A DNA stretch of 64,000 nucleotides, taken from contig CAZTCF010000002.1 of assembly GCA_964612685.1 (NCBI GenBank), forward strand, positions 212 to 64,211. The letters are read 5' to 3'. How positions within the stretch are numbered: the stretch's first letter is position 1; every line of letters starts with the position of its first letter. The translations under genes were made by a program, and so were the position numbers. Positions 3,001 to 64,000 of the stretch are shown piece after piece. This DNA comes from Candidatus Woesearchaeota archaeon. Its GTDB lineage: Archaea > Nanobdellota > Nanobdellia > Pacearchaeales > GW2011-AR1. Below the pieces are notes generated by a model. The model was not told the DNA's origin. It was given only the letters and a program-made list of their open reading frames with translations, and made no database searches.

Positions 3001-3060
3001 CAATATCTAGAGAACCACATTCAGAACTTCCAGCACCAGGATTCAATATTATTCTTCTGT
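1..3060 (-). repeat. Intragenic tandem duplication of a roughly 1.5-1.65 kb beta-helix module within the giant gene, seen as two diverged copies (about 1640..3060 and about 1..1640)
   Basis: Parallel peptide landmarks sit about 1650 nt apart. NCSYDSE...RWYY(K/Q)AYVNDSSG appears near 1950 and near 300. (N/Y)xNDSN(E/I)FNFTITQN appears near 1650 and near 10. PG(P/A)...C...TLT(E/G)NISS appears near 3050 and near 1600. Confidence 0.6.
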
Positions 3061-9016: not shown

Positions 9017-9119
9017 TACTTATTATTTATGTAATATACCTTATAAATATATCTATTATTTATTAAAAATACTTATTATATATGTATAAATAATAAACAG
9101 AAATTTGTAGTTATAATAA

Positions 9120-27214: not shown

Positions 27215-27260
27215 CTAAAACCTCTCCCTCTTCCCATACTTCGTATGCAGCAACTTTTCT
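27215..27260 (-). repeat. Copy 3 of the conserved 3-prime-end element, here inside the coding 3-prime end of hydA (encodes ...LLHTKYGKRERF*)
   Basis: cctctccctcttcccatacttcgtatgcagcaacttttctgc with aattaatt upstream. About 90% identical to copies 1 and 2 over about 35 nt. Confidence 0.8.
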
Positions 27261-32995: not shown

Positions 32996-35221
32996 TCAAA
33001 CAATCGCCTTTCCTTTCTTTATCTCTTCAAGCATTAATCTTGAAATTAAGTATTCAATAGTTGACTCTGCACCCTGATTAAGATTTATTGAGCTCTTAGA
33101 TAGCCCATCATGACATCCGCCCGTAACATCATTATAAATCATTTGTTTTAAATGATTCTTTCCTAAAAACCAATTAAATGCAAGCACAGCGTTATTGTAA
33201 TAATCCTCCTTACCCGTAATCGCATATGCTGTTAAGTATGTTTGAACCATTGAAGATGCGTCTATAGGCTGTTGGTCAAAGAAACTCCTTACCCCATGTC
33301 TATTATACCACCCGTTCTGTCCAATAGGAGACAACTCATCCTTAACAAAAACCAAATTTGTTAAAAACTTCAAACTTTTCTCAGCAATCTCAAGATATTC
33401 TGGATTCTTTGTTAAATTATAAGCCAAAAAAAGAACCTCTGGAAGTTTTGAATTTGAATAAGTTAAATACCCTTCAAACCAATTCCACTCTTCTGTTGCC
33501 TCATTTTTGTAAGACTCTACCAAAGCATCTACTAGTTTAACTATCTTAGCTAATATCTGCTCATTCTTATATTTTTGATAATAATGATACATTCCAATCA
33601 AAGAAAATGCTTTAGCTCTTGGAGAACTATCCTCTTCAATATGAACATGAGATTTATCAAACATCTCTCTTGCCCTATTAATATGCTCTTCATTCCCCCC
33701 ATAATTTATTAAATGCCCTAATGCCCACAAAGTTCTTCCTATAGCATCCTCACTTGTAGATATAAGATTTTTACTCTCATACTCCATATCATTAAATCTA
33801 CCCTCTCCATCATGAACCTTTTCCAAGAAATCCAAATAAATCTTTGAAAGCTCTTTTGAAATCTCTGAGTTATATAATCTATCATGAATTGTAGCAACGA
33901 TTAATGCCCTGGCATTATCATCAACAGTATATCCTGATGAACTATCCGGAACAGCAAGCTTTGAAAATTGTATACATCCAACATGATCTGTAAGTGTCTT
34001 TAAATGATTCAATTTTATCTTAGGATATTTCTCTGTTGTTTCCTCTCTTAATTTAACAACTTTATTGAAAAGATGCAAATAACTAGAAGCAACATTTGGC
34101 CATATCATTGACCTTGCAAAAGCATAAGCATTTTGTTCTATTCTTTTTCTTAAATCAGGATTAGATAAAAGTTTATCTATACACTCTGCATAGGATTTTG
34201 GATTTTGTAATCCTGCCACAAGCCCCCTCTCTCCACTCAAAACTTCCTCTGCATATAAATTTGGAGTTGAAACAACTGCCTTCCCACACCCCATAGCATA
34301 AGACAATGTCCCAGAAACAATCTGATTTCTCTCTAAATTAGTCATAATATAGATGTCAGATGCAAGAAGATATTCTATTATCTCTTCTATATCAAGATAT
34401 TTATTGTAAAACTTAACGTTATCCTGCAACTTAAGTTTCTTAACCAAGTCCATTAAATAATTTCTATATTCTTCTCCCTCCCTCTTTCTTATAACAGGAT
34501 GCGTCTCACCTATAACCACATATAATATATTTGGATATTTCTTTACAAGATAAGGAAGAGCCTTAATCATATACTCAATACCTTTACCTCTGCTCAACAA
34601 TCCAAAAGTTGAAAGAACAATCTTATTGTCTAATCTCAATTTCTTCTTAAATGGCTCTGCATCCTTCAAGGGAGTATCTGGGATACCATGTCTTATCACA
34701 TGTATCTTGCTCTTAGGAACCCCATAATCATTATGGAGGATATCTATTGCACTCTCAGCCATTACTATCGTGGCAGCACACTTATCACATATAAACTTCA
34801 CCACATTCTTTCTCAAATTATTTGGCTGAGGAAGAACGCTATGAAAAGTTACTACAACCGGTTTAGTTACCGCCTCTAAAAAAGGAATAATATAACTCCC
34901 ATACTCTCCCCCAAATATCCCAAACTCGTGCTGTATACAAACTAATTTTATCTTATCCGAACGATTTATTTTCTTAGCCATATTTATGTAATCCTCAAGA
35001 TAATCTTTGTTCATCTGAAGAATAACTCTGCTATCATAATTGTAAATACTAGACTCCTCGTTCAATGCAATAACTCTTGATTTGACTTTAGGATTAAATT
35101 TCTTGTTTAAAGAAGTGATTAAATCTTGTGTAAAAGTTGCAATCCCACATTCCTTCGGGGGAAAATTACTAAGAAAACATATTTTTGAATCTTTAAATCC
35201 TTCCAGCTCTTTTTCATCCAT
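32996..35221 (-). CDS. Fusion protein: N-terminal GT4 glycosyltransferase plus C-terminal six-hairpin (alpha/alpha)6 glycosidase-like domain
   Basis: 741 aa. N-terminal half has a GT-B/GT4-like layout (GIPDTP, FGLLSRGKGIEYMIKAL, E..E-like region). C-terminal half is rich in aromatic helical repeats (VDDNARALIVATIHD...WNWFEGYLTYSN...) like GDE_C/GH63-type barrels. Confidence 0.5.
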   Translation of the reverse strand: MDEKELEGFKDSKICFLSNFPPKECGIATFTQDLITSLNKKFNPKVKSRVIALNEESSIYNYDSRVILQMNKDYLEDYINMAKKINRSDKIKLVCIQHEFGIFGGEYGSYIIPFLEAVTKPVVVTFHSVLPQPNNLRKNVVKFICDKCAATIVMAESAIDILHNDYGVPKSKIHVIRHGIPDTPLKDAEPFKKKLRLDNKIVLSTFGLLSRGKGIEYMIKALPYLVKKYPNILYVVIGETHPVIRKREGEEYRNYLMDLVKKLKLQDNVKFYNKYLDIEEIIEYLLASDIYIMTNLERNQIVSGTLSYAMGCGKAVVSTPNLYAEEVLSGERGLVAGLQNPKSYAECIDKLLSNPDLRKRIEQNAYAFARSMIWPNVASSYLHLFNKVVKLREETTEKYPKIKLNHLKTLTDHVGCIQFSKLAVPDSSSGYTVDDNARALIVATIHDRLYNSEISKELSKIYLDFLEKVHDGEGRFNDMEYESKNLISTSEDAIGRTLWALGHLINYGGNEEHINRAREMFDKSHVHIEEDSSPRAKAFSLIGMYHYYQKYKNEQILAKIVKLVDALVESYKNEATEEWNWFEGYLTYSNSKLPEVLFLAYNLTKNPEYLEIAEKSLKFLTNLVFVKDELSPIGQNGWYNRHGVRSFFDQQPIDASSMVQTYLTAYAITGKEDYYNNAVLAFNWFLGKNHLKQMIYNDVTGGCHDGLSKSSINLNQGAESTIEYLISRLMLEEIKKGKAIV

Positions 35222-39977: not shown

Positions 39978-39980
39978 AAT

Positions 39981-40080
39981 AGCCCCACCAGGATTCGAAC
40001 CTGGGTCCCGGCCTCTCTTCATCTTATCTATTTTCAAGATACCAAAGGGCCGTATACTTGACCACTGTACTATGGGGCTA
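39981..40080 (-). tRNA. tRNA-Gln (anticodon TTG) containing a 27-nt intron at the canonical 37/38 position
   Basis: Minus strand AGCCCCA-TA-GTAC-AGTGGTCAA-GTAT-A-CGGCC-CTTTGG[TATCTTGAAAATAGATAAGATGAAGAG]A-GGCCG-GGAC-CCAGG-TTCGAAT-CCTGG-TGGGGCT-A. The exons give a 73-nt cloverleaf with archaeal A1-U72. Confidence 0.7.
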
Positions 40081-48717: not shown

Positions 48718-49344
48718 ATGGACATGTCTAAAGAAAAAATTGAAGAACTCAAGAAGCAAATAATCCTTCAGATACAATCAAATTATCCAGAAGATCAGAA
48801 AGAGTATGCAATAAAGAGAATAACCTCGATGAGCGATGATGAGTTTATAGAATTTCTTGAAAAAAATAAACGAACATCTTCAGAAAAAGAAATAGAATCT
48901 GAAAGCCCTTTTAGATTAATCGTATCTGGAAAAATCCCTTCATACAAAATACAAGAAAATAAACTTTGCATTGCAGTACTTGAAATAAACCCCATATCAA
49001 AAGGACACATAATAATAATCCCAAAAAAACCCCTACTCGAATCAGAAAAAATACCAAAAAGTATTTTATCTTTAGCAAACAACATCTCAAAAAGAATACA
49101 ATCAAATCTCAAACCAAAAGAAGTGTTAATTTCTTCAAACAATTCACTTGGAGAAATAATTATGAATATACTTCCAATATATTCCAATGAAAAAATTTCC
49201 TCCCCCAGAAAACAAGCCTCTAAAGAAGAATTAGAAAATTTAAAGAATATTCTTGAAAAGAAAATTGCTCCAAAAAGAGAAAAGAAACCTAAGATAAATA
49301 AAATTGAAGAATCCAAAATGTGGTTTCCAAAAAGAATACCCTAA
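48718..49344 (+). CDS. HIT-like domain protein apparently lacking the histidine triad
   Basis: NKLCIAVLEINPISKGHIIIIPK matches the HIT N-terminal motif. The expected HxHxHxx segment reads NSLGEIIMNILPIY (no His). Lys-rich C-terminal tail. Confidence 0.45.
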   Translation: MDMSKEKIEELKKQIILQIQSNYPEDQKEYAIKRITSMSDDEFIEFLEKNKRTSSEKEIESESPFRLIVSGKIPSYKIQENKLCIAVLEINPISKGHIIIIPKKPLLESEKIPKSILSLANNISKRIQSNLKPKEVLISSNNSLGEIIMNILPIYSNEKISSPRKQASKEELENLKNILEKKIAPKREKKPKINKIEESKMWFPKRIP

Positions 49345-50180
49345 AATAAATAAAAATTATGAAAGACAATAATATAAATTAGTGCAAGATAACTAATAAG
49401 GAAAACTGGGCTGAAAGGAATTCCTTGTCTTATTAATATATACTTTTTTTTCTTTCTTAAGAAGATTATCTCTTCCTTACTAACTCCGCTCCACCTAGCT
49501 TCTATAAATCTTTTTCCAATTCTCAAATTATTGTATAACCAATCTCCCTCAGTTAAATCCCTTGTATTTATTTTTTTAACCATGCATGCCTCATCAATAG
49601 ACTTTGCAGAAAAATAAACATATGGAGAAATAAATGCCAAAACCCCAAGATACAAAAAAATATTTTCAATAAATGCAAATATAATCAAAACTACTGCAAG
49701 CAAAGTTGAAATATAAAATACACTTTTTCTTTTCTTAAACTGACTTGAAAATTCCCTTATGAATCTCTTTCTATTTTTAATTCCTAAATAGATTCCTATG
49801 ACTACCCCATAAAAAGCCCCTGCAACAAGGAAAAACAAAAGAAAAACAAGTGCAGAATTAATATTTACAAGAAACGTCTCCGAAAAAGGTATAACTGCTC
49901 CCAAAGAAATCATTAACTTTGCATCTCCTCCAGCAAACACTTTCCCATAATATAACATATTGCCAACTAAAAAGAATATTCCAAATCCTACAACCCCTTG
50001 CAAAAAGAAAGAAAACCCTTCCTGTCCAAATAAAGAATAAAAAAATCTGAATCCCAATGCAAAGATTGCAAGAGAAAAATTAAGCCAATTTGCAATTTCT
50101 CTTTTCCTTAAATCTTGTACAACAGCAAATATTATCCATATCAAACCCAAGATAATTAAAAACAAATTTCCAACCCCCAT
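49341..50180 (-). CDS. Prepilin peptidase (A24 family; archaeal PibD/FlaK-like)
   Basis: Polytopic membrane protein with the first catalytic Asp context AVVQDLRKREIANWLN and the second GGDAKL. Confidence 0.65.
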   Translation of the reverse strand: MGVGNLFLIILGLIWIIFAVVQDLRKREIANWLNFSLAIFALGFRFFYSLFGQEGFSFFLQGVVGFGIFFLVGNMLYYGKVFAGGDAKLMISLGAVIPFSETFLVNINSALVFLLFFLVAGAFYGVVIGIYLGIKNRKRFIREFSSQFKKRKSVFYISTLLAVVLIIFAFIENIFLYLGVLAFISPYVYFSAKSIDEACMVKKINTRDLTEGDWLYNNLRIGKRFIEARWSGVSKEEIIFLRKKKKYILIRQGIPFSPVFLISYLALIYIIVFHNFYLF

Positions 50181-50344
50181 TAACAGAATTAGTAAATTTA
50201 ATTTATAAACTTAGCCAATTTTGACAACCCGATATTTTCCACCTTTTTTATAAGGATGTTTTTTCTTTTCTTTTCTCTTTTCCTTACTTTTATTTCTTTT
50301 CTCAGAACAAGCATAATTTGACATATTACCTATTTTAAAAAAAT

Positions 50345-50677
50345 TTAATTAGCACACAAGCCTGGACAGGGTTCTACCCCATATTGTCTTGAGATATAAT
50401 TCTGCTTGGTAGCCAAATCATTACAAGTAGCCTCAAACTTAGGATTGGTTCCATCCTTAACTTCTCTAGGGACAGCACAGAAATCATATTGTGCGCCTGT
50501 AGAACAAGCAACCCCACAAGAATTCTTCACTGTATCTAAATTGGTAGAACTTACCCATGGAAGAAGTTTGCTCCACCCCATAGTAAATCCTAAAATTAAC
50601 ACAACAAGTATAACTAATCCTAAAATAAGCAAAATCACCGTACTAATACTCATCCCTTGAGCCTTTTTGTTTATCAT
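50345..50677 (-). CDS. Type IV pilin-like protein (class III signal peptide), Cys-rich C-terminal domain
   Basis: MINKKAQG|MSISTVILLILGLVILVVLILG N-terminus. Eight Cys in the mature part. Confidence 0.5.
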   Translation of the reverse strand: MINKKAQGMSISTVILLILGLVILVVLILGFTMGWSKLLPWVSSTNLDTVKNSCGVACSTGAQYDFCAVPREVKDGTNPKFEATCNDLATKQNYISRQYGVEPCPGLCAN

Positions 50678-50733
50678 CTTCTCTTTTTGTTATTTAGTAA
50701 TTAAATAAATTAACACCTATTTAAAAATCTTTC

Positions 50734-51006
50734 TTATGAAGGATTATACTCCACAGAAAACACAATCACTTCCTTAAACCAATTAAAACCCCACTCTGGA
50801 GAGAATTTTGTAGCTTTCTCATTTAAATAAATATGATCAAGATTATGTGACTCAATCTGAATATTTGCTTTTTCTATTATTTCCACTCCTATAAAAGATG
50901 TATTAAGTTGATGAGAAGAATAAATAAAACTAAAAATAGCCAAAGTACAAACTGCAAAGACTCCTATCACCAAAATAGTCAAAGGCAAATCTCCTCTTTT
51001 ATCCAT
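50734..51006 (-). CDS. Type IV pilin-like protein
   Basis: MDKRG|DLPLTILVIGVFAVCTLAIFSF. Confidence 0.45.
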   Translation of the reverse strand: MDKRGDLPLTILVIGVFAVCTLAIFSFIYSSHQLNTSFIGVEIIEKANIQIESHNLDHIYLNEKATKFSPEWGFNWFKEVIVFSVEYNPS

Positions 51007-51268
51007 TTTCTCCAGCCTGAGATATCCATCCCTGAATTCTGTTTTTATTCATTGAACTTATAGTATATGCAAACTGTGTCTTTGAAGTTACCCAATCCAC
51101 TGATTCTCCGGAATCGTCAGATAAATTTACTTTAAGATATTTTGTTGCAGAAAGTATAGATGAAGCGTAAATAAAAATTATTAAAACTACTATCAAAACA
51201 ATAGTAGCTATAACCCATGTCAAAAATTCCCCTACCTGAGCTTTTTTATTATTTTTATTGTTTAGCAT
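50999..51268 (-). CDS. Type IV pilin-like protein
   Basis: MLNNKNNKKAQVG|EFLTWVIATIVLIVVLIIF. Confidence 0.45.
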   Translation of the reverse strand: MLNNKNNKKAQVGEFLTWVIATIVLIVVLIIFIYASSILSATKYLKVNLSDDSGESVDWVTSKTQFAYTISSMNKNRIQGWISQAGENG

Positions 51269-51791
51269 TTTTTTCAGACTTGCCTATTACAGACAAAATT
51301 TTAATTAAGTGTTGATTTTTATCTTCATCCAAAGCATAAAATCTTTTTTCAGTACATTTTGCAAGTTTCCTATACTCTTTACTATTTTCTTTTTTTATAT
51401 AACAATCCATCTCCCAATTATTATTCCCACCATAAAAACTAAAAACTGGATACTCTAAATCCGTAACTTCATAAAACTCCACCTTATAGAAATATTGTAT
51501 TTCATCTCCATATCCTTCCTCAACATTAAAATTAAAATTACAATCTTCGCTGAAAGTATTCCCTATCTCTTGATTAAATCCTTCTTCTACAAACAAATTT
51601 GGATTTAACGTACCTTGCCTTGATAGGCAATCGGCAATTCTCCCTGCAAATATCTCTGATTCTATCTCTCTAACATCATAAGGGGGACCATAAAAAACAT
51701 AAACCATAGCAAAAACCCCTCCTCCAATAAGTGTTAAAACAACAAACCAGTATATTGAAAGAATTTTATCTGTGCCGCGTTTATCTCTCAT
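51255..51791 (-). CDS. Type IV pilin-like protein
   Basis: MRDKRG|TDKILSIYWFVVLTLIGGGVFAMV. Confidence 0.45.
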   Translation of the reverse strand: MRDKRGTDKILSIYWFVVLTLIGGGVFAMVYVFYGPPYDVREIESEIFAGRIADCLSRQGTLNPNLFVEEGFNQEIGNTFSEDCNFNFNVEEGYGDEIQYFYKVEFYEVTDLEYPVFSFYGGNNNWEMDCYIKKENSKEYRKLAKCTEKRFYALDEDKNQHLIKILSVIGKSEKNAKQ

Positions 51792-52198
51792 GTTCCTCTC
51801 CTATCTTCTTTAATTCTAAATACATACATCCCCGTGTACTCTCCCATATTATCTTTTTCAGCATTTGCTGAGACAACAACATCATTAAAAAAAGCATAAG
51901 TGTAACCCTTCCCTTCACCAAACTTAACTGTAACAAAATTTCCAGTTATTATTACAGCATTTCCAAAATCAACCCCGCTTTTCTCTGTAAGCTTTTTTCC
52001 TTTTTCCATATCTAATTTTACCTCCATCCCAGAAATTGAAGAATCAACAAACATAGCAATCTCTTTTGAATAAACTTGCTCCAAAACAAGTGTTCCACTT
52101 CCTTGCTTCAACAGAAAAAGAATAAGAATTGATAAAAAAAGAACATTCAAAATTATAAAAACAATGTTCTCAACAAGAATCGTCCCCTTTTTTTTCAT
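51788..52198 (-). CDS. Type IV pilin-like protein (G|TILVE: Glu at +5)
   Basis: MKKKG|TILVENIVFIILNVLFLSILILF. Confidence 0.5.
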   Translation of the reverse strand: MKKKGTILVENIVFIILNVLFLSILILFLLKQGSGTLVLEQVYSKEIAMFVDSSISGMEVKLDMEKGKKLTEKSGVDFGNAVIITGNFVTVKFGEGKGYTYAFFNDVVVSANAEKDNMGEYTGMYVFRIKEDRRGT

Positions 52199-52232
52199 AT
52201 ATAGTTTATGGAAATATGATTAATAAAATTAT

Positions 52233-53186
52233 CTAAGTGGAAGTTAAAATATCTGCACAATTAAGCAATTCAAATTCCTCTGAGCTTGCTTCTGTTATTG
52301 TTGGAGCCATAAATTTATTGCCTACCCCATCTCCCTCAACAACTATTGCTCCTATTTTAGGAGAAATTAAATCGGATAAGACTAATTCTCCAGCAATACC
52401 TGCTCCCGCACCAGCAACCTCTCCCACAAGAACAGTAGAAACAAGTGCTGGAGCTATTCCTCCTGTTGCAACTGAAACAGCCCCGATTCCTGCAATTAAT
52501 GCTCCTCCCAACGCCCAAGTAAGGGTGTTTGACTCACTTGTAATTCCCATAACTACAAAATACTGTTTTCCGAATTCTATTGAACCAAAATTAACATCCT
52601 CTCCCACTCTTCTTGATAAATCTCTTTTCAATCTATCCACATCATTAGTTCTTAAAAGATATGATGCATAAGTTCCCTCTCCCTCGGGTAAAGAAGTCTT
52701 AGAAAGATACTCATAAAGTTTATCCTGACTTATCTCTTCCCCAACCCCCTCAATATCTTTTACACTATCATCTAAAACAAACTGGGTACATATAGAACAA
52801 TAATTACGCGGGACTCCCGTAGGATTGACATAGCTTATTCTCCCCTCCCCAAACATCCACCAACAATCTGCCATTTCTTTAGCCAGGGCAGCATAAATTT
52901 CTTCTTCAGATTTTACTTTAACTATCTCTGGACTAGTCATCCTCTCACAACTACCATCCTTGCTTAAACAAATATAAGTCCTTGAACATTTTAATGGGGT
53001 TGCAGCATCTGGAAGAACCGTCCCCTTCAATACAACAGAATTATGGCATATCTCTTTATCTGTTTCTTCTGCAGGATTTAATCTAAAAATAAAAAATAAT
53101 ATAACGGCAAAGCTAATCAAAAGTATAATCAACAAAACTATCTGTTGTGTAGTTATCTCCCCTTTATTATCAATATTTTTTTTCAT
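52233..53186 (-). CDS. Pilin-like protein with C-terminal Gly/Ala-rich hydrophobic region
   Basis: MKKNIDNKG|EITTQQIVLLIILLISFAVILFF. C-terminal ALGGALIAGIGAVSVATGGIAPALVSTVLVGEVAGAGAGIAGELV. Confidence 0.4.
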   Translation of the reverse strand: MKKNIDNKGEITTQQIVLLIILLISFAVILFFIFRLNPAEETDKEICHNSVVLKGTVLPDAATPLKCSRTYICLSKDGSCERMTSPEIVKVKSEEEIYAALAKEMADCWWMFGEGRISYVNPTGVPRNYCSICTQFVLDDSVKDIEGVGEEISQDKLYEYLSKTSLPEGEGTYASYLLRTNDVDRLKRDLSRRVGEDVNFGSIEFGKQYFVVMGITSESNTLTWALGGALIAGIGAVSVATGGIAPALVSTVLVGEVAGAGAGIAGELVLSDLISPKIGAIVVEGDGVGNKFMAPTITEASSEEFELLNCADILTST

Positions 53187-53290
53187 TTAAAGTCAAAGCA
53201 CTCCTGTTCTTTTAAGCATAAAAAATAATCCTGTTAAAGCCACCCCAAAAAAGATTATCCAAATTAAATACTTTATCATCTCATCAATAT

Positions 53291-53782
53291 TCATCTTGAC
53301 TCCTCCAAAAAGATTTTCCCGTTTTGATTTTTAATTCCAACAAATAAAAGATTGTCCGCACCATTTATTTTAAAATCAAATTCATCTATAGCAAGATTTT
53401 CAACGATTAAACATTCCCCTGTTTTATCACACTTAGCTGCCTGAGACCTCAAAAGCTCTATCTGCGATTTCGCGCAAATACAAACGCATTTTTCGTTTAA
53501 ACAAGAATTAGGTTTTTCCTCTCCTACAAAACTATACACATGCCATCCTACAGGCTGAGGAACATCCTGTCTTTCACTCCCTCCCTCAATTAAAGAAGAG
53601 ATTATTACTTCTAATCTAGATAGAGAATCTCTAGCTTGTTCTAATTTCTTTTCAGAAGTGCTAGAATTATAAACTGCTATTAAAAGATAAATTAAAAAAA
53701 CTATACAAATAACCGCAATAATTATCTTCAAGGTTTCCTCAGCTAAAAGAAACCCCTTTTTATTTTTATTAAAAATATTCAT
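53291..53782 (-). CDS. Type IV pilin/pseudopilin-like protein with bacterial-style G|FxxxE signal
   Basis: Proposed start MNIFNKNKKG|FLLAEETLKIIIAVICIVFL, i.e. the internal Met of the track ORF 53291..53845. ATG 53782 sits 2 nt after the stop of the upstream sORF. Confidence 0.5.
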   Translation of the reverse strand: MNIFNKNKKGFLLAEETLKIIIAVICIVFLIYLLIAVYNSSTSEKKLEQARDSLSRLEVIISSLIEGGSERQDVPQPVGWHVYSFVGEEKPNSCLNEKCVCICAKSQIELLRSQAAKCDKTGECLIVENLAIDEFDFKINGADNLLFVGIKNQNGKIFLEESR

Positions 53783-53783
53783 C

Positions 53784-53945
53784 TTAATATAATCCCATAA
53801 AAAATTTAACTGTCTCTCCTCCCCCAAAATTCCTAAAAAAGTCAATTACATTATTCTTAAAAAAATAATAAACTGCAAAAACAACCACCCCCACGACCAC
53901 CAACCCTATAATTATTTTTATTATATTTTCTATTGTAAGTTCCAT
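53784..53945 (-). CDS. Unlisted small membrane sORF (53 aa) in the pilin string
   Basis: MELTIENIIKIIIGLVVVGVVVFAVYYFFKNNVIDFFRNFGGGETVKFFMGLY. GGAGGT SD 5 nt upstream. Confidence 0.4.
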   Translation of the reverse strand: MELTIENIIKIIIGLVVVGVVVFAVYYFFKNNVIDFFRNFGGGETVKFFMGLY

Positions 53946-53947
53946 TA

Positions 53948-54103
53948 CTACCTCCTAAAAAGGTTAGAAATTTTATCTATTAAGGATGTCCCTTCTTGTT
54001 TAAGAAAAAATATAGATATTACAATAATTACTAAAAGTGCGAGAGCGATTAAAAGCCAGGGAAGATATTCCATAGCCACCCCTTTCTTATTCCTCTTTGC
54101 CAT
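53948..54103 (-). CDS. Unlisted pilin-like sORF (51 aa) with class III signal
   Basis: MAKRNKKG|VAMEYLPWLLIALALLVIIVISIFFLKQEGTSLIDKISNLFRR. Stop TAG 53950-53948 precedes the next ATG by 2 nt. Confidence 0.45.
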   Translation of the reverse strand: MAKRNKKGVAMEYLPWLLIALALLVIIVISIFFLKQEGTSLIDKISNLFRR

Positions 54104-54152
54104 TTATAATACAAAAAAAGAGAGTTAATAAAATTTACTTAAATCCTTCATT

Positions 54153-56351
54153 CTAAGAAAGAACCCCTCCAAGAACAACTGTAGAAAGTACAAATAATGC
54201 TATTGAACAAAGCAAGGCAGTGAAAAAGTAAAACAACATTCCAGTTTTTAGATTTTCTCCAATCTTTCTTGTTCTCTCAAGCTTATCCTCTCCTGAATCT
54301 ATTGTGACTAGAGTTCCTGTAAGTATAAAGATAACTTCTATTAGATATATCCCTATCGCAATCTGAAGGAAATAGGGAGGGATCATCTCATTCATCTTAA
54401 ATACCCCCTCTGGACCAAGTAAATTGGCCAAATTACCATAACTAGAAAGATCCGCCCCCTCTTCAGAGAAAGCATTAGATAAATTGTTAAGAATAGATGC
54501 AATCATCATTGCCAGCCCAATAACTATACCAGATAATAATGGTGCAAGGAAAGTCATATTACTCTTCATTTCCGAAACAATCTCCGCAAGAATATCTTTC
54601 AAACGTTCTGTTATCTTTTGAATATTTTTAACGTACTCTGAAATACTCATTAAACTGACAGCAGCAATCTTAAGCCCTTTCTTAGAAGACTCTACAAGAA
54701 CTTTCATACTTGTAGCGATTAAATCTGAAGGGTAAAAAAGAATAACCCCCCGACGAGAATCAAAAATAGCCTTTTCAACACTCATACCCATTTGCTGGAT
54801 GTTATAATTTACTCTCTTAAAAAATTCTCCAGTCACAAGTCCTTTAGAAGATTCAGCAACTTTACCAAAAACAAGCTCAGGAGGTGTCCCATCTCCTAAC
54901 CGATTACCAATCTGAAACAAAGAGTTGTTGAATTCTGATTCAAGTTGTTTAGTTCTATTTCTTTCTTCAATAATATTACTTGTACGGTCTTTGAAAGCAA
55001 TAGAAAAAAACAATGCAACCCCAAGGGGGATACACAAACTCATAATCAAGGCTACAAAGCCAAATGGGCCCACAATACCCTTCTCTGTTTCCTTAAACTC
55101 AAAAAGGCTTGTATCAAAAATTCCGCCCTCCCCTTCAAATGGGAGTAAATCGCCAATCATAGGATTGCTTGATATCCCCAAAGCATCGGGTAAAGGGGTG
55201 TATTGGAAAATTAAAGGAAGCAAACCAATAATAAACAAAGGAAGACAAATTAAAAATGCTGCAAAATATGGTTGCTTAGATTTATATTGGGGATAAAGCG
55301 GGTTTTTTTCCAAATAAGATGTTTCTCCATACCCTCCTGGCCTTAACAACATAATTTTATCCATCATAAAAAAAGCTAAAAAAGGGATTATCAGAGTATA
55401 AAGTACGAAAATATGTGTCCATTTTATCATTCCTCCCATCATTGCAGAAGCAAGAGGGATAAGAGCTATCCCTAAAACAGGCAACATTATTGCAAGCATA
55501 TAAACATTAGTCATAGGAGCTTTAACATCATGAGTAAACTTAAGCATCTTTTCATAAACCCCATCAAGAACAACTTGTATTGCTTTCTCAAGGGTGGCAA
55601 TTCTTCTAACTTTATTCGGTTCATACAAACTACTCTCAATCAAATGAAAAGATTCTATAAACTCAACAGAATAATCTCTCCATCCCTCAAGATAATTATC
55701 TAGACTTTCTTTTATCGTCGGAAACTTACCTATTGCAACATTATAAAATATCTTTTTAAAATCCAACGCTAAAGGATATTGCAAATGTTCCGAAGCAAAG
55801 GCTATTGCCTTTTCTAAATTAGGAGTATGCCTCATATAAACAACAACATAGAGTATAGCAGGAACCATCTGAGAAGAAGCCTTTAATCTCCATTTGCTAG
55901 CATATCTCGAAGGATAATTATTGAAATAATAAAACAAAAATATAGAAAGAGTTGTTATAAGAAAAAAGAATAAAGTTGGGAAAGCGCTAAATCCATACTT
56001 GTTAAAAACAGAGTAAATTACAGAAGAAATTATCCCAAAAAAGAAAACCGAAATAAAAACAACAACGCTAAAAGTAATTGCTTGCCAGGGTTCTATATTC
56101 ATATGGGAAATTTCTATATCTTTTTGCATCTTTTCTGAATCTTTCTTTGAAGGGGTTAACCTCACAACATTTCCCACTCTCCTACACCAAGTTTCATAGC
56201 CAGTCAATTCTCTTTCAGTTTCACCAATAAATTTAGAATAAGATTTACTATCTTTAACCACCCCAAGATCTGAAGTTTTTATCTCTCCCTCAATTTTACT
56301 TCCATATTTATTAAGAATTTCATCTACAGTGGGTTTTCTATAAGGTTGCAT
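54153..56351 (-). CDS. Polytopic membrane platform protein of the pilus system (GspF/TadC/FlaJ-like)
   Basis: 732 aa with more than 8 hydrophobic helices in two blocks. Sits immediately downstream of the secretion ATPase and upstream of the pilin genes. Family call is from topology and synteny only. Confidence 0.5.
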   Translation of the reverse strand: MQPYRKPTVDEILNKYGSKIEGEIKTSDLGVVKDSKSYSKFIGETERELTGYETWCRRVGNVVRLTPSKKDSEKMQKDIEISHMNIEPWQAITFSVVVFISVFFFGIISSVIYSVFNKYGFSAFPTLFFFLITTLSIFLFYYFNNYPSRYASKWRLKASSQMVPAILYVVVYMRHTPNLEKAIAFASEHLQYPLALDFKKIFYNVAIGKFPTIKESLDNYLEGWRDYSVEFIESFHLIESSLYEPNKVRRIATLEKAIQVVLDGVYEKMLKFTHDVKAPMTNVYMLAIMLPVLGIALIPLASAMMGGMIKWTHIFVLYTLIIPFLAFFMMDKIMLLRPGGYGETSYLEKNPLYPQYKSKQPYFAAFLICLPLFIIGLLPLIFQYTPLPDALGISSNPMIGDLLPFEGEGGIFDTSLFEFKETEKGIVGPFGFVALIMSLCIPLGVALFFSIAFKDRTSNIIEERNRTKQLESEFNNSLFQIGNRLGDGTPPELVFGKVAESSKGLVTGEFFKRVNYNIQQMGMSVEKAIFDSRRGVILFYPSDLIATSMKVLVESSKKGLKIAAVSLMSISEYVKNIQKITERLKDILAEIVSEMKSNMTFLAPLLSGIVIGLAMMIASILNNLSNAFSEEGADLSSYGNLANLLGPEGVFKMNEMIPPYFLQIAIGIYLIEVIFILTGTLVTIDSGEDKLERTRKIGENLKTGMLFYFFTALLCSIALFVLSTVVLGGVLS

Positions 56352-56479
56352 TTTTTCCTCTTTTTTAAAATCTTAAAAATATTACAAATTTACATTTGCT
56401 ATTTTATAATTATTCCAATAAAATAAAAAGAATTAATAAATGTTTAGAATAAACCCTAAAAACTAAATTAACTTACAAC

Positions 56480-58768
56480 TTAGATGGATTTTTTCTTAAC
56501 CTCATTATTTAACCAGCTTTGCCATACAGGAAAAACCCTCTCTCCCAATGGCAACCCCACCTCTTGAATTACCTCTTCAGATATTCTATGGAAAACATGA
56601 TTTGATAGTGTATTAAACTTTGACTCCAAAAGGGCAGGATTTCCTGATTTTTTTGATACATCCACAAGTTCTTTTTTTATTTTTGATCTTAAAAGAATAT
56701 TATCATAAACAGCATCCCAATTTCCAGCCCACCCCTTAACATTAGAAGCAACATCTTTTATTATTTCGCTATCTCCATTTATTAAATCTTCAGTAGGTTC
56801 TACTTCATCTTTACTGATATTATATTTCATTAAATCAACAAAACCCTTCTCAACCATTGGGTCTTTAGTCCAATGTTTTCTAACCTCAGAAAGTTGAATT
56901 AATCTTTTCCAGGCGTGTAATCCATCTGGAGATTTTATTGGATTACATACTACAATAGAATCTGTTGCTTTAAAACTGGTAACAGGCACACCCAAGTCAT
57001 TAACAACCCTATCAAAAACTCCATAAGGAGAAGCTCCATGAATAGTACCTGCAACAACATTCGCTAATGCGCCTACCCTCATAGCCTCATAAAGTGCTTT
57101 AGCCTCGACACTCCTTACCTCCCCAATAATAAGACAACTATCTCCCAACCTCAAACTAGTCCTTATTCCGTCGTCAGCTGAAACCTCGCTAGTTGTTTTT
57201 AAAAGTGCTGAACGAACTTTCATTCTTAAAATATCATAATTTAATTTTCTTAAAGATTCAACAGGCAATTCTAAAGAATCCTCAATAACAATTATCCTAT
57301 GCTTAGGAACAATTTCTAACATCAGACTTCCTAAAAGAGAAGTCTTACCTGAACTTCTTGTTCCAGCAACCAAAAGCGTTCTTGCTCCATCTATCAAAAA
57401 ACTAAGTAATCCTGCAGCAAAAGGATTAAGCATTTTATTATCTACAAAAAGAGGAAGAGTCCAGGGGCTTTCTCTATGTCGTCTTATTGAATATGCCAAC
57501 CCGTCACAAGAAAGAGGGGGCTGTACAATTGAAATTCTAGCTCTTAAATTTCCTATTTCCAATTGTGTATCTAAAATGGGATTAGCTTCATCAAGAGGCC
57601 TTCCAGATATCATTCTAAACTTTGCAGCCCAAGAGTCAGCATCTTCCTGGCTTGGAAGAATATTTGTAATACATTCATCATAATCTTGGTGTCTAACAAA
57701 AATTGGAGTTTGTGGGATTGGAGCATTTAAAGAAATATCCTGAAGATTCTTATCCTGAAGTAGAACTTCAACAATCCCAAAACCAATTGTATGTCTAACC
57801 AATATTGCTGCAAGCTTGTTAAGAGAAGAGTAATCTAATCTAATCCCTTTACTCTCAGACAGATCACGAATCAAATCTCTTGAAATGTTCATGAAAACTT
57901 GCCTTATCCTCTCAGTATCGGTAAACTCTTCCGCTTTTGGTTGATGTTCAATTAAAACCCCTCTTGCAAGATTTAGAAGTGAACTCTGGTCTTCACTTAA
58001 GGTGTTTTCTGGAGGAACAATATGATATATCAATTTAGATTCATCCTTCTTTTTCAAAATTGTAACAAAAGATTCGTCATGCTCTCCATTAGATATCATG
58101 TATTGTGAGATTATCTCTGCGTCATCGGGAAGATCTGAAACTAGACGAGTAAATGTAAAATTAGAGATAATATCTGCCCTAAAAAATTTGTTATAAATTT
58201 CTCTATCTCCTCTTCTATATTCTGGGGCATATTGTTGGAAATGTTGAATGAAACTTGTTTTGGAGAAAATAACCCAAATCTTATCAAGAAGAGAAAGATA
58301 ATTTTTTTGATCCGATTTAATTATCCCCTCCATCTTATCCAGAAGTATTTTTCCCTCTAAGATAATCTTCCTAAGTTGGAAATACGCTGCAAGGGGATCC
58401 TTCTTCAGCAAATACAAAAAAGAAAAAACTTCGTTATATCTTTTTGGAAAAAAATCCGGATTTGTTGTTACCAATCTTTCCTGACTTAAAACTTTTTCTT
58501 GTTTAAGAAGAGACATATAAAGTTGTGCTATCTCCAGAAGATAACCGGTTTCTCTTAAATCATAATTATAATTTTTTTGTTGAACAAAGACAATTCTTGA
58601 AACATTTGGATTTTCAATAAGAGAGTCTATTGTTCTCTCCATCACTTCAGGATAATCCACCAAATTTGGAACATATGGTGCCCCCATATAATTAACATAC
58701 AAAACATCTTCTCCTCCTTCTCTTTTTACTTCATAAGAATAAAGTGCTTCCTCTTTCTCAAATTGCAT
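56480..58768 (-). CDS. Type II/IV secretion-system ATPase (GspE/VirB11/FlaI family) with large N-terminal domain
   Basis: Walker A LLVAGTRSSGKTSLLGSL, Walker B/Asp box RIIVIEDSLELP, and His box-like IHGASPYGVFDR. Confidence 0.75.
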   Translation of the reverse strand: MQFEKEEALYSYEVKREGGEDVLYVNYMGAPYVPNLVDYPEVMERTIDSLIENPNVSRIVFVQQKNYNYDLRETGYLLEIAQLYMSLLKQEKVLSQERLVTTNPDFFPKRYNEVFSFLYLLKKDPLAAYFQLRKIILEGKILLDKMEGIIKSDQKNYLSLLDKIWVIFSKTSFIQHFQQYAPEYRRGDREIYNKFFRADIISNFTFTRLVSDLPDDAEIISQYMISNGEHDESFVTILKKKDESKLIYHIVPPENTLSEDQSSLLNLARGVLIEHQPKAEEFTDTERIRQVFMNISRDLIRDLSESKGIRLDYSSLNKLAAILVRHTIGFGIVEVLLQDKNLQDISLNAPIPQTPIFVRHQDYDECITNILPSQEDADSWAAKFRMISGRPLDEANPILDTQLEIGNLRARISIVQPPLSCDGLAYSIRRHRESPWTLPLFVDNKMLNPFAAGLLSFLIDGARTLLVAGTRSSGKTSLLGSLMLEIVPKHRIIVIEDSLELPVESLRKLNYDILRMKVRSALLKTTSEVSADDGIRTSLRLGDSCLIIGEVRSVEAKALYEAMRVGALANVVAGTIHGASPYGVFDRVVNDLGVPVTSFKATDSIVVCNPIKSPDGLHAWKRLIQLSEVRKHWTKDPMVEKGFVDLMKYNISKDEVEPTEDLINGDSEIIKDVASNVKGWAGNWDAVYDNILLRSKIKKELVDVSKKSGNPALLESKFNTLSNHVFHRISEEVIQEVGLPLGERVFPVWQSWLNNEVKKKSI

Positions 58769-58800: not shown

Positions 58801-59190
58801 TTGTATAATCCAAACAAATTTAAACTAGCTTTGCATTTACCAAATATGGCTGAAGAGGAATATGAAAATCAATATTTTACAGAAACCAGCACAAAAGTAA
58901 GAGATTTGGAAGAAAAACAAAGAATAATCAAAGACAGAATTCTTTTAATTGGACAAAACTTAATAGAAATGAAAGGAGATATACAAAATACATTTTTGAC
59001 CATAAAAAAGGATCTTGAAATAATGAAAAGAGATATTGAAAGATTAAAATCTTTTTTTGAAACTGCTTCTGGAGAATTTTCAAAGTTTGCTAAAAAAGAA
59101 GAGTTAGAAATTCTTTCCAAACAAGCAAAGATGTTTCAGCCTTTAGAATTTGTAACAAGAAAGGATTTAGAAAAATTAAAAAACAACTAA
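58801..59190 (+). CDS. Coiled-coil hypothetical protein
   Basis: 129 aa, heptad-rich (DLEEKQRIIKDRILLIGQNLIEMKGDIQ...). Confidence 0.35.
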   Translation: MYNPNKFKLALHLPNMAEEEYENQYFTETSTKVRDLEEKQRIIKDRILLIGQNLIEMKGDIQNTFLTIKKDLEIMKRDIERLKSFFETASGEFSKFAKKEELEILSKQAKMFQPLEFVTRKDLEKLKNN

Positions 59191-59987: not shown

Positions 59988-60584
59988 TTAATTTCCAGAT
60001 AAATTTCTTAACAAGGCATTCTCAAAAGGAGGTCTATTATTCTTCTTTGTAGAAGTCATGGCCACTATTGCGATAATTATAACCGCAAAGATGATTATTG
60101 CGCTGTATCTATCCCAGAAATAAGAAAATCCTGGTCCTCCAATCCCCCATCCAAATACACTCAAGGAATTAACTATAACAGTTCCGATTATCACAAATAC
60201 AATAACTGCTAAAGCAATCATAAACCAATTTCCTTCCTTATTTGTAGGCATAAACAATCCTCCTAAAATAAGTATCACTAGTATTATTGAAAGAGCAACC
60301 CCAAATCTAGGAAATATTTCAGAAAAAAATGCGGAAACAATATTAAACTGCAAGGCCATAAAAGAAACAGCCAAAGCAATCATCACATTAATTCCTTTAT
60401 TAGGACTATCTTTCGTTGCAAAGATATTCATCTTCATAAGCAAACCAAAAACTAAAGCGAATATCAAAAGGAAAGGTAAAGCATACTGAAAAATTCCTGC
60501 AGCTTCCCATTGAGCAAATAACTCTCCGAGAGCACCTCCTCCATAAGAACTGTATGAAGCTAAAAATATCACCCCGTTCATCAT
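59988..60584 (-). CDS. Four-TM membrane protein, paralog A
   Basis: YALPFLLIFALVFGLLMKMNIFATKD aligns with FVYPFLLIFFIIFAILEKSKIFGEDK in the neighbouring ORF. Confidence 0.45.
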   Translation of the reverse strand: MMNGVIFLASYSSYGGGALGELFAQWEAAGIFQYALPFLLIFALVFGLLMKMNIFATKDSPNKGINVMIALAVSFMALQFNIVSAFFSEIFPRFGVALSIILVILILGGLFMPTNKEGNWFMIALAVIVFVIIGTVIVNSLSVFGWGIGGPGFSYFWDRYSAIIIFAVIIIAIVAMTSTKKNNRPPFENALLRNLSGN

Positions 60585-60623: not shown

Positions 60624-61127
60624 TTATTTTTTACCCGATTTCAATGCAACAGCCAAAGCAATAGCAACCACCACAATGAATACAAAATTTGTCCAAAAGG
60701 TACTACTCCAAGAGATGTTGAAAAGATTATCCAAAAAGTTACCGACATCAATTCCTGCAGCCCAAAGAACTGCAATAGTAACAGCAACAACTATGAAAAT
60801 ACCTATAGTCCATCTTAATCCCTTAGGCATATTAGCGAATTTCAAACCCTCCTCGCCAGCTACAAATCCCCAAAGAACAAGTATTACAAACATAACAACA
60901 ACCCCGATTGTTAAAAAAAGAATAAGATTTGTGGCCATCTCCTTTGGAAAAACTGCAGTCACAAAAATAAAACCAATGACAAATGCAATCAATGCATTAA
61001 TTTGTTTTTTATCTTCCCCAAAAATCTTAGATTTCTCAAGTATTGCAAAGATTATAAAAAATATTAAAAGAAAAGGATATACAAACTTAGTTAAAACTGG
61101 ACTTTCTAAGAATGTTATTTCTGCCAT
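60624..61127 (-). CDS. Four-TM membrane protein, paralog B
   Basis: Same architecture and shared N-terminal motif as 59988..60584. The antisense 60613..61209 ORF is spurious. Confidence 0.45.
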   Translation of the reverse strand: MAEITFLESPVLTKFVYPFLLIFFIIFAILEKSKIFGEDKKQINALIAFVIGFIFVTAVFPKEMATNLILFLTIGVVVMFVILVLWGFVAGEEGLKFANMPKGLRWTIGIFIVVAVTIAVLWAAGIDVGNFLDNLFNISWSSTFWTNFVFIVVVAIALAVALKSGKK

Positions 61128-63043: not shown

Positions 63044-64000
63044 TTAAGTAATATATCCTACCCTATAAGGAGGATTAATATTCAACGTAGGGTCTCCAAT
63101 TAATGTTACCATATATCTCCATCTTTCTTGAATATCTCCAAACACTTTGTTCTTGTATGCGGTTCCCATTGCCTGCCCAAGACTCATACTTGAAGTATAA
63201 GCATCCCCATGATAAACTCCATTTATAAAATCAGAATAAACTGGACCAGTCATAGTCATACTAACCCCAACAGATCCTGCATACCCTATTGCCCCATTCC
63301 TTATGACCCATGCCCAAAAAGAATAATCAGTATATACTGACGCGGTTAAACAAGCATCAGCAACAACTAAAGAGTTTTTTAAGTTGGGAATCTGCCAATA
63401 ATTAATTCCAGCCCAACCCTTGTCCCCGTGATCTGCATAAAAGATTAGATTATAATCATACTTGCTCCACAACGCCGGATCAAAACTAAATGAATCGTAA
63501 ATGTATTTCTCATCTATAGTATATCCCGCATCTTGAAATGAATCCGACATTCTTTTTACACTTTCCATTCCATCCCAAACATCACCCATCTCATAACTGC
63601 TCCCCATAAAAAGAGCATTATCCTCTGGTAATAAAGAGTTATAAAATAAACTCCTTGAAATATAGCTTGAAACATCTGAGATAGTTAAACCCATAATCCT
63701 CCCCACATAAAAATAACTCCCATAATCTGCATATAAATTTTGATCAAGAGCTATGTATATGTCTTCTTTTTGACTTCCTATGCTTATTGGATCGTCAATT
63801 GTCGTATAAGTATACATCCTATGTTCTATGGCATTAGGAGCTGCAACAATAGTAAGATATCTTGGGTTAAGACTTAAATCCTTAGGATATTCATGAACAT
63901 AACTTGCTAAAATAGAATCCCCTCCCACCAAATTTGAAGGCCTTTCTCTTCCGTCCAAAGAAGACCCGTAAGACAAAGCACGACTAGAAGTGAGAATTAA
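63044..64000 (-). CDS. Cysteine peptidase-like protein (C25 gingipain / clostripain-fold His...Cys dyad), partial; N-terminus beyond the window end
   Basis: IFYADHGDKGWAG (His) ... LVVADACLTAS (Cys) spacing as in C25/C11 peptidases. The reading frame stays open past 63976 to the window edge (the track start there is a TTG). Confidence 0.45.
   Translation of the reverse strand, partial: LILTSSRALSYGSSLDGRERPSNLVGGDSILASYVHEYPKDLSLNPRYLTIVAAPNAIEHRMYTYTTIDDPISIGSQKEDIYIALDQNLYADYGSYFYVGRIMGLTISDVSSYISRSLFYNSLLPEDNALFMGSSYEMGDVWDGMESVKRMSDSFQDAGYTIDEKYIYDSFSFDPALWSKYDYNLIFYADHGDKGWAGINYWQIPNLKNSLVVADACLTASVYTDYSFWAWVIRNGAIGYAGSVGVSMTMTGPVYSDFINGVYHGDAYTSSMSLGQAMGTAYKNKVFGDIQERWRYMVTLIGDPTLNINPPYRVGYIT

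Follow-up and report, generated by a model that had tools for sequence, protein, structure and literature searches.

A predicted type IV pilus-like locus with a conserved set of small prepilin-like proteins in a DPANN archaeon

How do Pacearchaeota, archaea with a very reduced metabolism that are apparently host-attached (He et al. 2020), hold on to other cells? A locus that bears on this question lies in a 64,000-nucleotide (nt) stretch of contig CAZTCF010000002.1, referred to here as the window. The window is AT-rich (G+C about 29-37%), and the names carried by near-identical proteins and loci assign it to the Pacearchaeota/Woesearchaeota (Nanobdellota) group of DPANN archaea. Twelve consecutive open reading frames (ORFs) on the minus strand, running from 58768 to 49341, code for an ATPase of 762 amino acids (aa), a membrane protein of 732 aa, nine small proteins (in gene order 51, 53, 163, 317, 136, 178, 89, 90 and 110 aa long) and a 279-aa peptidase. 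In a preliminary description these genes had been read as a complete type IV pilus-like locus whose many pilin genes would point to a role of pilus composition or diversity in attachment; all twelve ORFs are indeed present at the coordinates and on the strand given there, and independent gene calls from ENA/JGI delimit the same 317-, 136-, 178-, 89- and 90-aa genes on contigs with an identical 136-aa protein. Here, we ask whether the locus encodes a filament assembly machine and what the number of its small proteins implies. We consider it highly probable that it encodes an archaeal type IV pilus-like filament assembly machine.

Core machinery of the locus

Three of the twelve genes code for the assembly and processing components:

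56480-58768, minus strand: secretion/assembly ATPase of the TadA/FlaI/CpaF type, 762 aa (Pfam, NCBIfam and PDB matches, motifs)
54153-56351, minus strand: polytopic membrane platform protein of a divergent GspF/PilC/TadC/FlaJ kind, 732 aa (T2SSF matches of relatives, hhalign)
49341-50180, minus strand: A24-family prepilin (class III signal) peptidase, FlaK/PibD-like, 279 aa (Pfam PF01478, PDB 3s0x)

The ATPase matches Pfam T2SSE (E = 1.1e-14), and its top NCBIfam scores are those to TadA (122.9 bits, 1.6e-35) and FlaI (118.4 bits, 3.7e-34), with lower scores for TrbB/VirB11 (59-66 bits), the bindosome ATPase (56), ComGA (42) and PilT (24). Its solved relatives in the PDB are the GspE-like protein 2oap of Archaeoglobus fulgidus (1.2e-26), CpaF (6e-25), FlaI (5.5e-13) and VirB11 (1e-6). 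The catalytic motifs are intact, namely Walker A (residues 469-476), the Asp box (492-500), Walker B (546-552) and the His box (574-578). The FlaI model covers residues 210-703 of 762, with the core at about 300-700; the protein thus extends beyond the model by about 210 residues at its N-terminus and by about 60 at its C-terminus. Judged by profile scores, the enzyme belongs with the pilus/archaellum assembly ATPases (TadA/FlaI/CpaF/afGspE) and not with the conjugation ATPases, whose models score well below those of the former. A grouping with non-pilus secretion ATPases, which the preliminary description had named as a refutation, is thus not what the profile scores show.

To compare the locus between species, we used 80 related loci in species-level genomes from a one-genome-per-species collection, in which orthologues of each small protein were recovered. 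The ATPase was found in 475 stretches of this collection; it is 72-97% identical overall (72-96% in the 80 related genomes) and nearly always exactly 762 aa long. For the same genome pairs, identity amounts to 73-76% for the ATPase, 64-74% for RadA, 55-66% for RPA, 59-65% for the platform protein and 36-46% for EF-1beta. The ATPase is thus conserved on a par with RadA, which indicates strong purifying selection.

The platform protein, which contains about 9-10 hydrophobic segments, was assigned through its relatives. A profile built from 23 homologues leads to 1164 cluster representatives. Ten divergent ones of full length were compared with Pfam T2SSF: two of them, which match the family profile with E <= 1e-71, exceed its cut-off of 25.2 bits with their N-terminal half (P0390 with 32.8 and P0386 with 30.4 bits), one stays just under it, and others give weak matches in the C-terminal half. 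In addition, hhalign aligns the profile over 485 columns (probability 99.6%, E = 1.9e-23) with a 604-aa "secretion system protein" from Haloterrigena turkmenica plasmid pHTUR04, which adjoins the closest annotated archaeal ATPase (T2SSE) and is likewise invisible to Pfam. Foldseek searches with an AlphaFold2 (AF2) model of the platform gave local, non-significant matches to SpoIIIAB and to the cytoplasmic domain of EpsF (template modelling score 0.57-0.63), which would suit a GspF-like cytoplasmic domain and serve as weak support for one. The platform is encoded by a single gene in this locus, as it is in each of the 66 related loci in which the gene is included. An internal duplication was also considered and rejected, as hhalign found nothing between the N- and C-terminal halves in a shallow alignment (effective number of sequences, Neff, 1.6). 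On the strength of its relatives we accept the 732-aa protein as a divergent platform protein.

The peptidase matches Pfam A24 (PF01478; E = 1.9e-13) as well as NCBIfam FlaK at 8.8e-12, which is under the cut-off of that model. When it is aligned to FlaK (PDB 3s0x, 2.6e-10), D23 (vvqDlRkREI) and D86 (aGGDaKL) fall on the catalytic Asp motifs. Residues 140-279 (49341-49760, minus strand) are not aligned to FlaK or to the Pfam/NCBIfam models; additional hydrophobic segments and some 60 residues of charged sequence are found in this C-terminal half.

Small prepilin-like proteins

Between the platform and peptidase genes lie the nine small genes, all on the minus strand; the slash marks the predicted cleavage site, and positions such as +1 and +5 are counted from it:

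53948-54103, minus strand: s51, 51 aa (about 43 aa after cleavage), KKG/VAMEYLPW; prepilin-like, helix-only, of Flp/EpdE-like size
53784-53945, minus strand: s53, 53 aa, small membrane protein with a pilin-like N-terminal helix, leaderless (MELTIENIIKIIIG...)
53291-53782, minus strand: s164, 163 aa, MNIFNKNKKG/FLLAEE, Phe +1, Glu +5, Cys-rich head; prepilin-like
52233-53186, minus strand: s317, 317 aa, NKG/EITTQQIV; the largest prepilin-like protein
51788-52198, minus strand: s136, 136 aa, KKKG/TILVEN, Glu +5; prepilin-like
51255-51791, minus strand: s178, 178 aa, KRG/TDKILSIYWF; prepilin-like
50999-51268, minus strand: s89, 89 aa, KKA/QVGEFLTW, archaeal-type Gln +1; prepilin-like
50734-51006, minus strand: s90, 90 aa, KRG/DLPLTILVIGV; prepilin-like
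50345-50677, minus strand: s110, 110 aa, KKA/QGMSISTVILL, six-Cys head; prepilin-like

All nine had been taken for proteins with class III signal peptides in the preliminary description, which named alignment of the cleavage motif as a check. The alignments bear this out for eight of them: in each of these families K[KR][GA] is conserved directly before the hydrophobic helix, and the leader comprises 6-8 aa with a net charge of +3. The claim fails for the 53-aa protein, which starts MELTIEN... and leaves no room for a leader. Its family begins M(A)ELTIxQLIKIILG, and none of 33 sequences, the window copy included, has a [KR][GA] site. The s53 start codon abuts the s51 stop, with a Shine-Dalgarno-like (SD-like) GGAGGT upstream, and one s53 orthologue matches Pfam Flp1_like at E = 1.7e-4, under the cut-off.

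Beyond the shared basic residues and Gly/Ala, each family has a site of its own. The most conserved small protein, s51 (median identity 60%), carries KKG/[IV]x[ST][ED]YLPW, with K[KR]G/ in 46 of 47 sequences; one of 14 family members scanned reaches Pfam Flp_Fap with E = 0.044, which is under the cut-off. The other family sites are KKG/E[LI]TTQQIV for s317, K[KR]G/(T)DK[IV] for s178 ([KR][GA] in 32 of 43 under a simple rule), KKA/Q[VI]GET for s89 (Gln +1 in 21 of 22, Trp +8 in 22 of 22), K[KR]G/D[IL]P for s90 (34 of 36) and K[KR]G/QG[LM]S for s110 (Gln +1 in 34 of 35, Gly +2 in 32 of 35). A Glu at +5, already noted in the preliminary description for at least two of the pilins, is real and conserved: it occurs in 33 of the 40 s164 sequences with Gly or Ala at the site (G/FLLAEE; 40 of 46 have such a residue) and in 33 of the 41 s136 sequences with a conserved cleavage motif (G/xILxEN, family site K[KR]G/xIL[VT]EN; 41 of 45 have the cleavage motif). 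For s164, a 184-aa ORF that starts with TTG is better begun at the ATG at 53782 (163 aa), as in the orthologues. When a strict class III pattern is applied to the 442 ATG-started ORFs of the window, it matches seven, six of which lie within a 3.8-kb stretch of the locus, a clustering beyond chance; the remaining match starts from an ATG inside the gene of a membrane protein.

What does this multiplicity mean? According to hhalign, the small proteins resemble one another only over their first 30-45 residues, as members of pilin families do, and no head domains match; the best pair is formed by the N-termini of s51 and s89 (94% over 31 columns). Each small protein has its own orthologue family with a median identity of 41-60%, and the order platform-s51-s53-s164-s317-s136-s178-s89-s90-s110-peptidase is kept in about 40 of the 80 related loci. 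Among the 34 loci with both platform and peptidase genes, the modal number of class-III-like ORFs is eight (19 loci), with seven in seven loci; a divergent locus (L040) likewise has seven, with quite different sequences. Similarity restricted to the N-terminus, separate families and constant order together argue for a fixed multi-subunit set and against a diversifying pilin array. The proposal that high multiplicity equals pilus diversity is thus not upheld, because the nine genes are not paralogous copies but separate families that keep the same order across dozens of species. The pattern fits one or two shaft pilins accompanied by minor or tip pilins, and not antigenic or functional diversification.

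Some of the set stand out individually. The head of s317 is Cys-rich and contains an invariant-looking motif, ADEMADCWWMFGEGK, and a hydrophobic insert near its C-terminus, rich in Gly/Ala, varies between sequences. The protein, which matches no family in Pfam or NCBIfam, is a candidate tip protein and the best adhesin candidate of the set. In s178, PYDVREIE is conserved past the helix. The 112 homologues of s136 are all annotated "hypothetical" and have no Pfam match. An AF2 model of s136 based on 36 homologues (predicted local distance difference test, pLDDT, 89.4) has an N-terminal helix at residues 3-52, kinked at the conserved Gly33/Gly35, followed by a short helix (65-74) and six beta strands; this predicted layout would be that of type IV pilins in general, i.e. 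a pilin-like "lollipop".

Further indications of how the set is used come from the upstream regions, which were anchored at the start codons and compared position by position across loci. For s51, the peptidase, s110 and s136, a conserved TATA-like box lies 22-29 nt upstream, without a Shine-Dalgarno sequence (SD). Three of these boxes are located as follows:

54125-54132, minus strand: TATA-like box TTTATTAA of s51, upstream of its ATG (96% of 46 loci have it at this distance)
52220-52227, minus strand: TATA-like box TTTATTAA upstream of s136 (66% of 44 loci)
50202-50209, minus strand: TATA-like box TTTATAAA upstream of the peptidase gene (89% of 35 loci)

The s110 box (50700-50707), again with no SD, is found in 77% of loci, and a conserved element, AAAtattTTAAAct, precedes the ATPase gene. 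The internal genes have no TATA-like box, SD-like sequences being present in 40-50% of them, and the genes s136-s178-s89-s90 overlap by 4-14 nt. Together, the TATA-like boxes and the overlaps suggest leaderless transcription units, predicted to be the ATPase gene, the platform gene, s51-s53-s164(-s317), s136-s178-s89-s90, s110 and the peptidase gene. With gaps of 56 nt and 164 nt on its two sides, s110 is seemingly monocistronic and has its own promoter-like box, which makes it a second candidate shaft pilin. Both s51 and s110 would thus head units of their own, and we consider them candidates for the shaft subunit.

Assembly model and alternative readings

The core of an archaeal type IV filament, as defined in a preprint, consists of an ATPase, a platform, a filament protein and a class III peptidase (Sivabalasarma & Albers 2026). 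All four are present in the locus, and its earlier description as complete, with ATPase, platform, prepilin-like proteins and A24 peptidase, is borne out. From these parts the following pathway may be proposed. The eight prepilin-like proteins would enter the membrane through their N-terminal hydrophobic helix, and the A24 aspartyl peptidase would cut off the 6-8 aa leader after the conserved Gly/Ala. A hexameric TadA/FlaI-type ATPase would dock on cytoplasmic domains of the 732-aa platform and, driven by ATP, lift the processed subunits from the membrane so that they stack by their N-terminal helices into a filament. The shaft would be made of one or two abundant subunits, candidates being the helix-only s51 and the separately promoted s110; the six other prepilin-like proteins and the leaderless s53 may form a priming or tip complex, in which s317 would be the likeliest adhesin. 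The filament is likely to serve in attachment to a host cell or a surface, attachment to the host being the most likely role. Cleavage, filament formation, shaft identity and attachment are all what we infer from the parts list.

Several observations weigh against this model. The 732-aa platform protein itself has no Pfam, NCBIfam or PDB sequence match, and with a pLDDT of 63 its AF2 model is of moderate quality at best. Neither the nine small proteins nor the 28 family members scanned pass the cut-off of a Pfam pilin family (Class_III_signal, Pilin_N, Flp_Fap, N_methyl and archaellin), and for the s136 model the best PDB match in Foldseek is not significant (E = 0.14). Position alone is weak evidence that the coiled-coil genes beside the ATPase gene (see below) belong to the system, since RadA, RPA and EF-1beta are equally syntenic. 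The filament, leader cleavage and expression in this lineage are predictions from the genes.

Could the same machinery drive a short pseudopilus or piston, as in type II secretion systems (T2SS) or competence, that serves to take up DNA or other macromolecules, or for export, instead of a long adhesive pilus? Many distinct pilin-like proteins in operons of fixed stoichiometry would suit such a device, two of them have the bacterial Glu +5 signature typical of pseudopilins and Com pilins, and large secreted proteases or adhesins are encoded between the ATPase and platform genes in other genomes. DPANN archaea also depend on nucleotides from outside, and ultra-small cells have been proposed to take up DNA in a competence-type manner (PMC9938205). 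However, Pfam/NCBIfam scans of the locus revealed neither a ComEC/DprA-like gene nor a secretin analogue, the cargo between ATPase and platform genes also includes a restriction enzyme and a glycosyltransferase, as at a general insertion hot spot, and the closest characterised archaeal relatives build adhesive pili. We hold a pseudopilus to be unlikely. That several of the small proteins are membrane-anchored or surface proteins which merely use the class III route, as sugar-binding proteins do in the Sulfolobus bindosome, next to a filament that is itself simple, appears very unlikely to us: none of them contains a substrate-binding or enzymatic domain, all are small, co-conserved with the machine and predicted to be co-transcribed from overlapping genes, and the score of the ATPase with the bindosome model is as low as 56 bits. 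This reading can nevertheless draw on the class III signal peptides of non-pilin archaeal proteins, as described in the preprint (Sivabalasarma & Albers 2026), on the variable Gly/Ala-rich hydrophobic segment at the C-terminus of s317, which is unusual for a pilin, and on the failure of Foldseek to recognise a pilin fold for the heads (s136 model).

An archaellum for motility, or a conjugative type IV secretion system (T4SS), is suggested by the labels "FlaI" or "VirB11" that JGI attaches to some homologues of the ATPase. The FlaI equivalog, however, is matched with 118 bits against a cut-off of 550, and VirB11/TrbB reach 59-66 bits, below TadA/FlaI; Pfam/NCBIfam scans revealed no match in the locus to archaellin, FlaH, FlaF/G or FlaCDE/X, nor to VirB4, VirD4 or a relaxase, and the prepilin set and the A24 peptidase point to a pilus. 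Either identity is extremely improbable. The archaellum, T4SS and bindosome readings were accordingly rejected on family scores and missing partner genes.

Returning to the pilus-like filament machine, the gene order kept across dozens of species and the RadA-level conservation of the ATPase make the locus a concrete candidate for an attachment apparatus, with a defined parts list of eight prepilin-like families, a leaderless partner and a peptidase. One may go further and propose that this ultraconserved locus is the essential host-attachment organelle of Pacearchaeota and a distinct filament subtype, with the helix-only s51 (about 43 residues) as shaft, the unprocessed s53 as its partner and a tip made of a fixed set of six minor pilins, two of them retaining a bacterial-type Glu +5; as a whole this proposal is unlikely. 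If true, the subtype would represent a minimal Tad/Epd-like design with pilin families invisible to current domain libraries, and such invisibility would explain past reports of type IV pili missing from DPANN (He et al. 2020). In any case, standard domain libraries miss the platform protein and every pilin-like protein, with the consequence that surveys can score DPANN genomes as pilus-less.

Neighbouring genes and comparison with known systems

Upstream of the ATPase gene, two divergent genes code for coiled-coil proteins (by heptad scores) of about 114-129 aa and 246 aa:

58801-59190, plus strand: coiled-coil protein, about 114-129 aa
59206-59946, plus strand: coiled-coil protein, 246 aa

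They adjoin the ATPase gene in 72 and 71 of the 80 related loci, respectively. Their heptad scores are 0.86 and 0.79 compared with 0.38-0.69 for controls, and neither protein has a signal peptide or transmembrane segment; homology between the two was looked for and not found. By their position, they may be accessory or regulatory partners of the filament system. Next to them, two polytopic membrane proteins of 198 aa (59988-60584, minus strand) and 167 aa (60624-61127, minus strand) have no Pfam family match; mutual tblastn matches in some related loci hint at paralogy, and the two genes stay beside the coiled-coil genes in 68 of the 80 loci. On the other flank of the locus lie genes for a HIT protein, EF-1beta, RPA and RadA, which are just as syntenic.

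The gap between the ATPase and platform genes measures 128 nt in the window (56352-56479) and between 31 nt and 9.8 kb in related loci; in many of the related genomes (loci L005, L013, L016, L037, L049, L056 and L071 among others) unrelated cargo of 0.1 to 9.8 kb is found there. Among this cargo are a type I restriction R subunit, a 1859-aa Big_7/LamG protein and proteases (an S8 subtilase of 1584 aa that carries FG-GAP repeats and a papain-like enzyme of 913 aa), as well as a glycosyltransferase and a beta-helix protein of chondroitinase-B-like type. With a restriction enzyme and a glycosyltransferase among it, the region looks like a general insertion hot spot.

Elsewhere in the window, a giant ORF (2-9019, minus strand) of >3006 aa extends past the window start; its domains are of the right-handed beta-helix, NosD, disaggregatase-repeat and glycine-rich types, and it probably encodes a huge surface or adhesin-like protein. 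A 532-aa serpin (25535-27133, minus strand; Pfam Serpin, E = 1.6e-115), extended at its N-terminus by about 140 aa, is unusual for a reduced-genome archaeon. A 568-aa [FeFe]-hydrogenase-like protein (27215-28921, minus strand) has a large-subunit C domain (1e-90) and small-subunit, 2Fe-2S and 4Fe-4S domains. A 741-aa protein (32996-35221, minus strand) fuses a GT4/GT1 glycosyltransferase to a C5-epimerase/GH88-like C-terminal region, and a protein with a peptidase C25 (gingipain-like) domain is encoded at 63044-63976 (minus strand). A 100-nt tRNA (39980-40079, minus strand) is detected by Rfam and not by ARAGORN in bacterial mode; it is probably an intron-containing archaeal tRNA.

Among known filaments, the archaellum shares homologous classes of ATPase, platform and A24 peptidase with the locus. 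It differs in its archaellins, FlaH, FlaF/G and FlaCDE/FlaX, none of which is found in the locus, and the FlaI and FlaK equivalog cut-offs are missed widely. The bacterial Tad/Flp pilus and the Epd pilus of Methanococcus maripaludis (System 1) share with the locus a TadA-type ATPase and a multi-gene cluster of many minor pilins with a dedicated peptidase; the proposed shaft and minor/tip set may be likened to the 11-gene Epd cluster or to bacterial minor-pilin sets. They also share a very short, helix-only candidate pilin, s51, whose G/xxx[ED]Y resembles the G/xxxxEY of Flp. On the other hand, the Glu-Tyr pair of s51 is one residue closer to the cleavage site and Flp_Fap is not reached, the locus has one platform gene instead of two (TadB and TadC, or EpdJ and EpdK), its peptidase aligns to the FlaK type, and bacterial CpaF/TadA are only 26-29% identical to its ATPase.

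The traits of System 2 match those of the locus: its ATPases are extended at both termini, its platform is encoded by one gene, and some of its pilins carry the class III motif whereas others lack it (Sivabalasarma & Albers 2026). As in this system (clade 2, the Haloferax volcanii PilB3C3/PilB4 type), the locus combines an extended ATPase, one platform gene and class III proteins with the leaderless s53, and the best solved relative of its ATPase is the A. fulgidus GspE-like 2oap; unlike there, no PilA/DUF1628-type pilin (arCOG02416; Pfam Pilin_N/DUF1628) or arCOG02911-type minor pilin is recognisable in the locus. ATPases of clade 2 and of subclade 4F have both been noted in "nanoarchaea", and a Cys-rich N-terminus is given as a trait of subclade 4F (Makarova et al. 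2016, PMC4858521). The nearest annotated relative of the ATPase, from Haloterrigena pHTUR04 (40% identity over the core), has such a Cys-rich N-terminus, and subclade 4F is therefore as possible a placement as clade 2. Placed by description, the locus matches System 2, with an ATPase that may be of clade 2 or subclade 4F.

Type IV pilus components have been called missing in DPANN, while size-fractionation data indicate that Pacearchaeota are strongly host-attached (He et al. 2020); the blindness of domain libraries to the platform and to all pilin-like proteins could explain the former statement. Two conserved type IV pilus-like loci that hold coiled-coil proteins beside CpaF and TadC, and in one case FlaF/PilA, have been reported across cluster-2 DPANN lineages, Pacearchaeota and Woesearchaeota among them (Hamm et al. 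2024, Nat Commun 15:6449, PMC11291902). In architecture and taxon the locus agrees with these, having a CpaF/TadA-like ATPase, a TadC-like platform and adjoining coiled-coil genes, and its kind is therefore already known. The filament genes named there are only of the FlaF/PilA type and in one locus, whereas here eight prepilin-like families, a leaderless partner and an A24 peptidase in cis are individually conserved. The locus is thus a new, well-resolved example of already reported type IV pilus-like loci.

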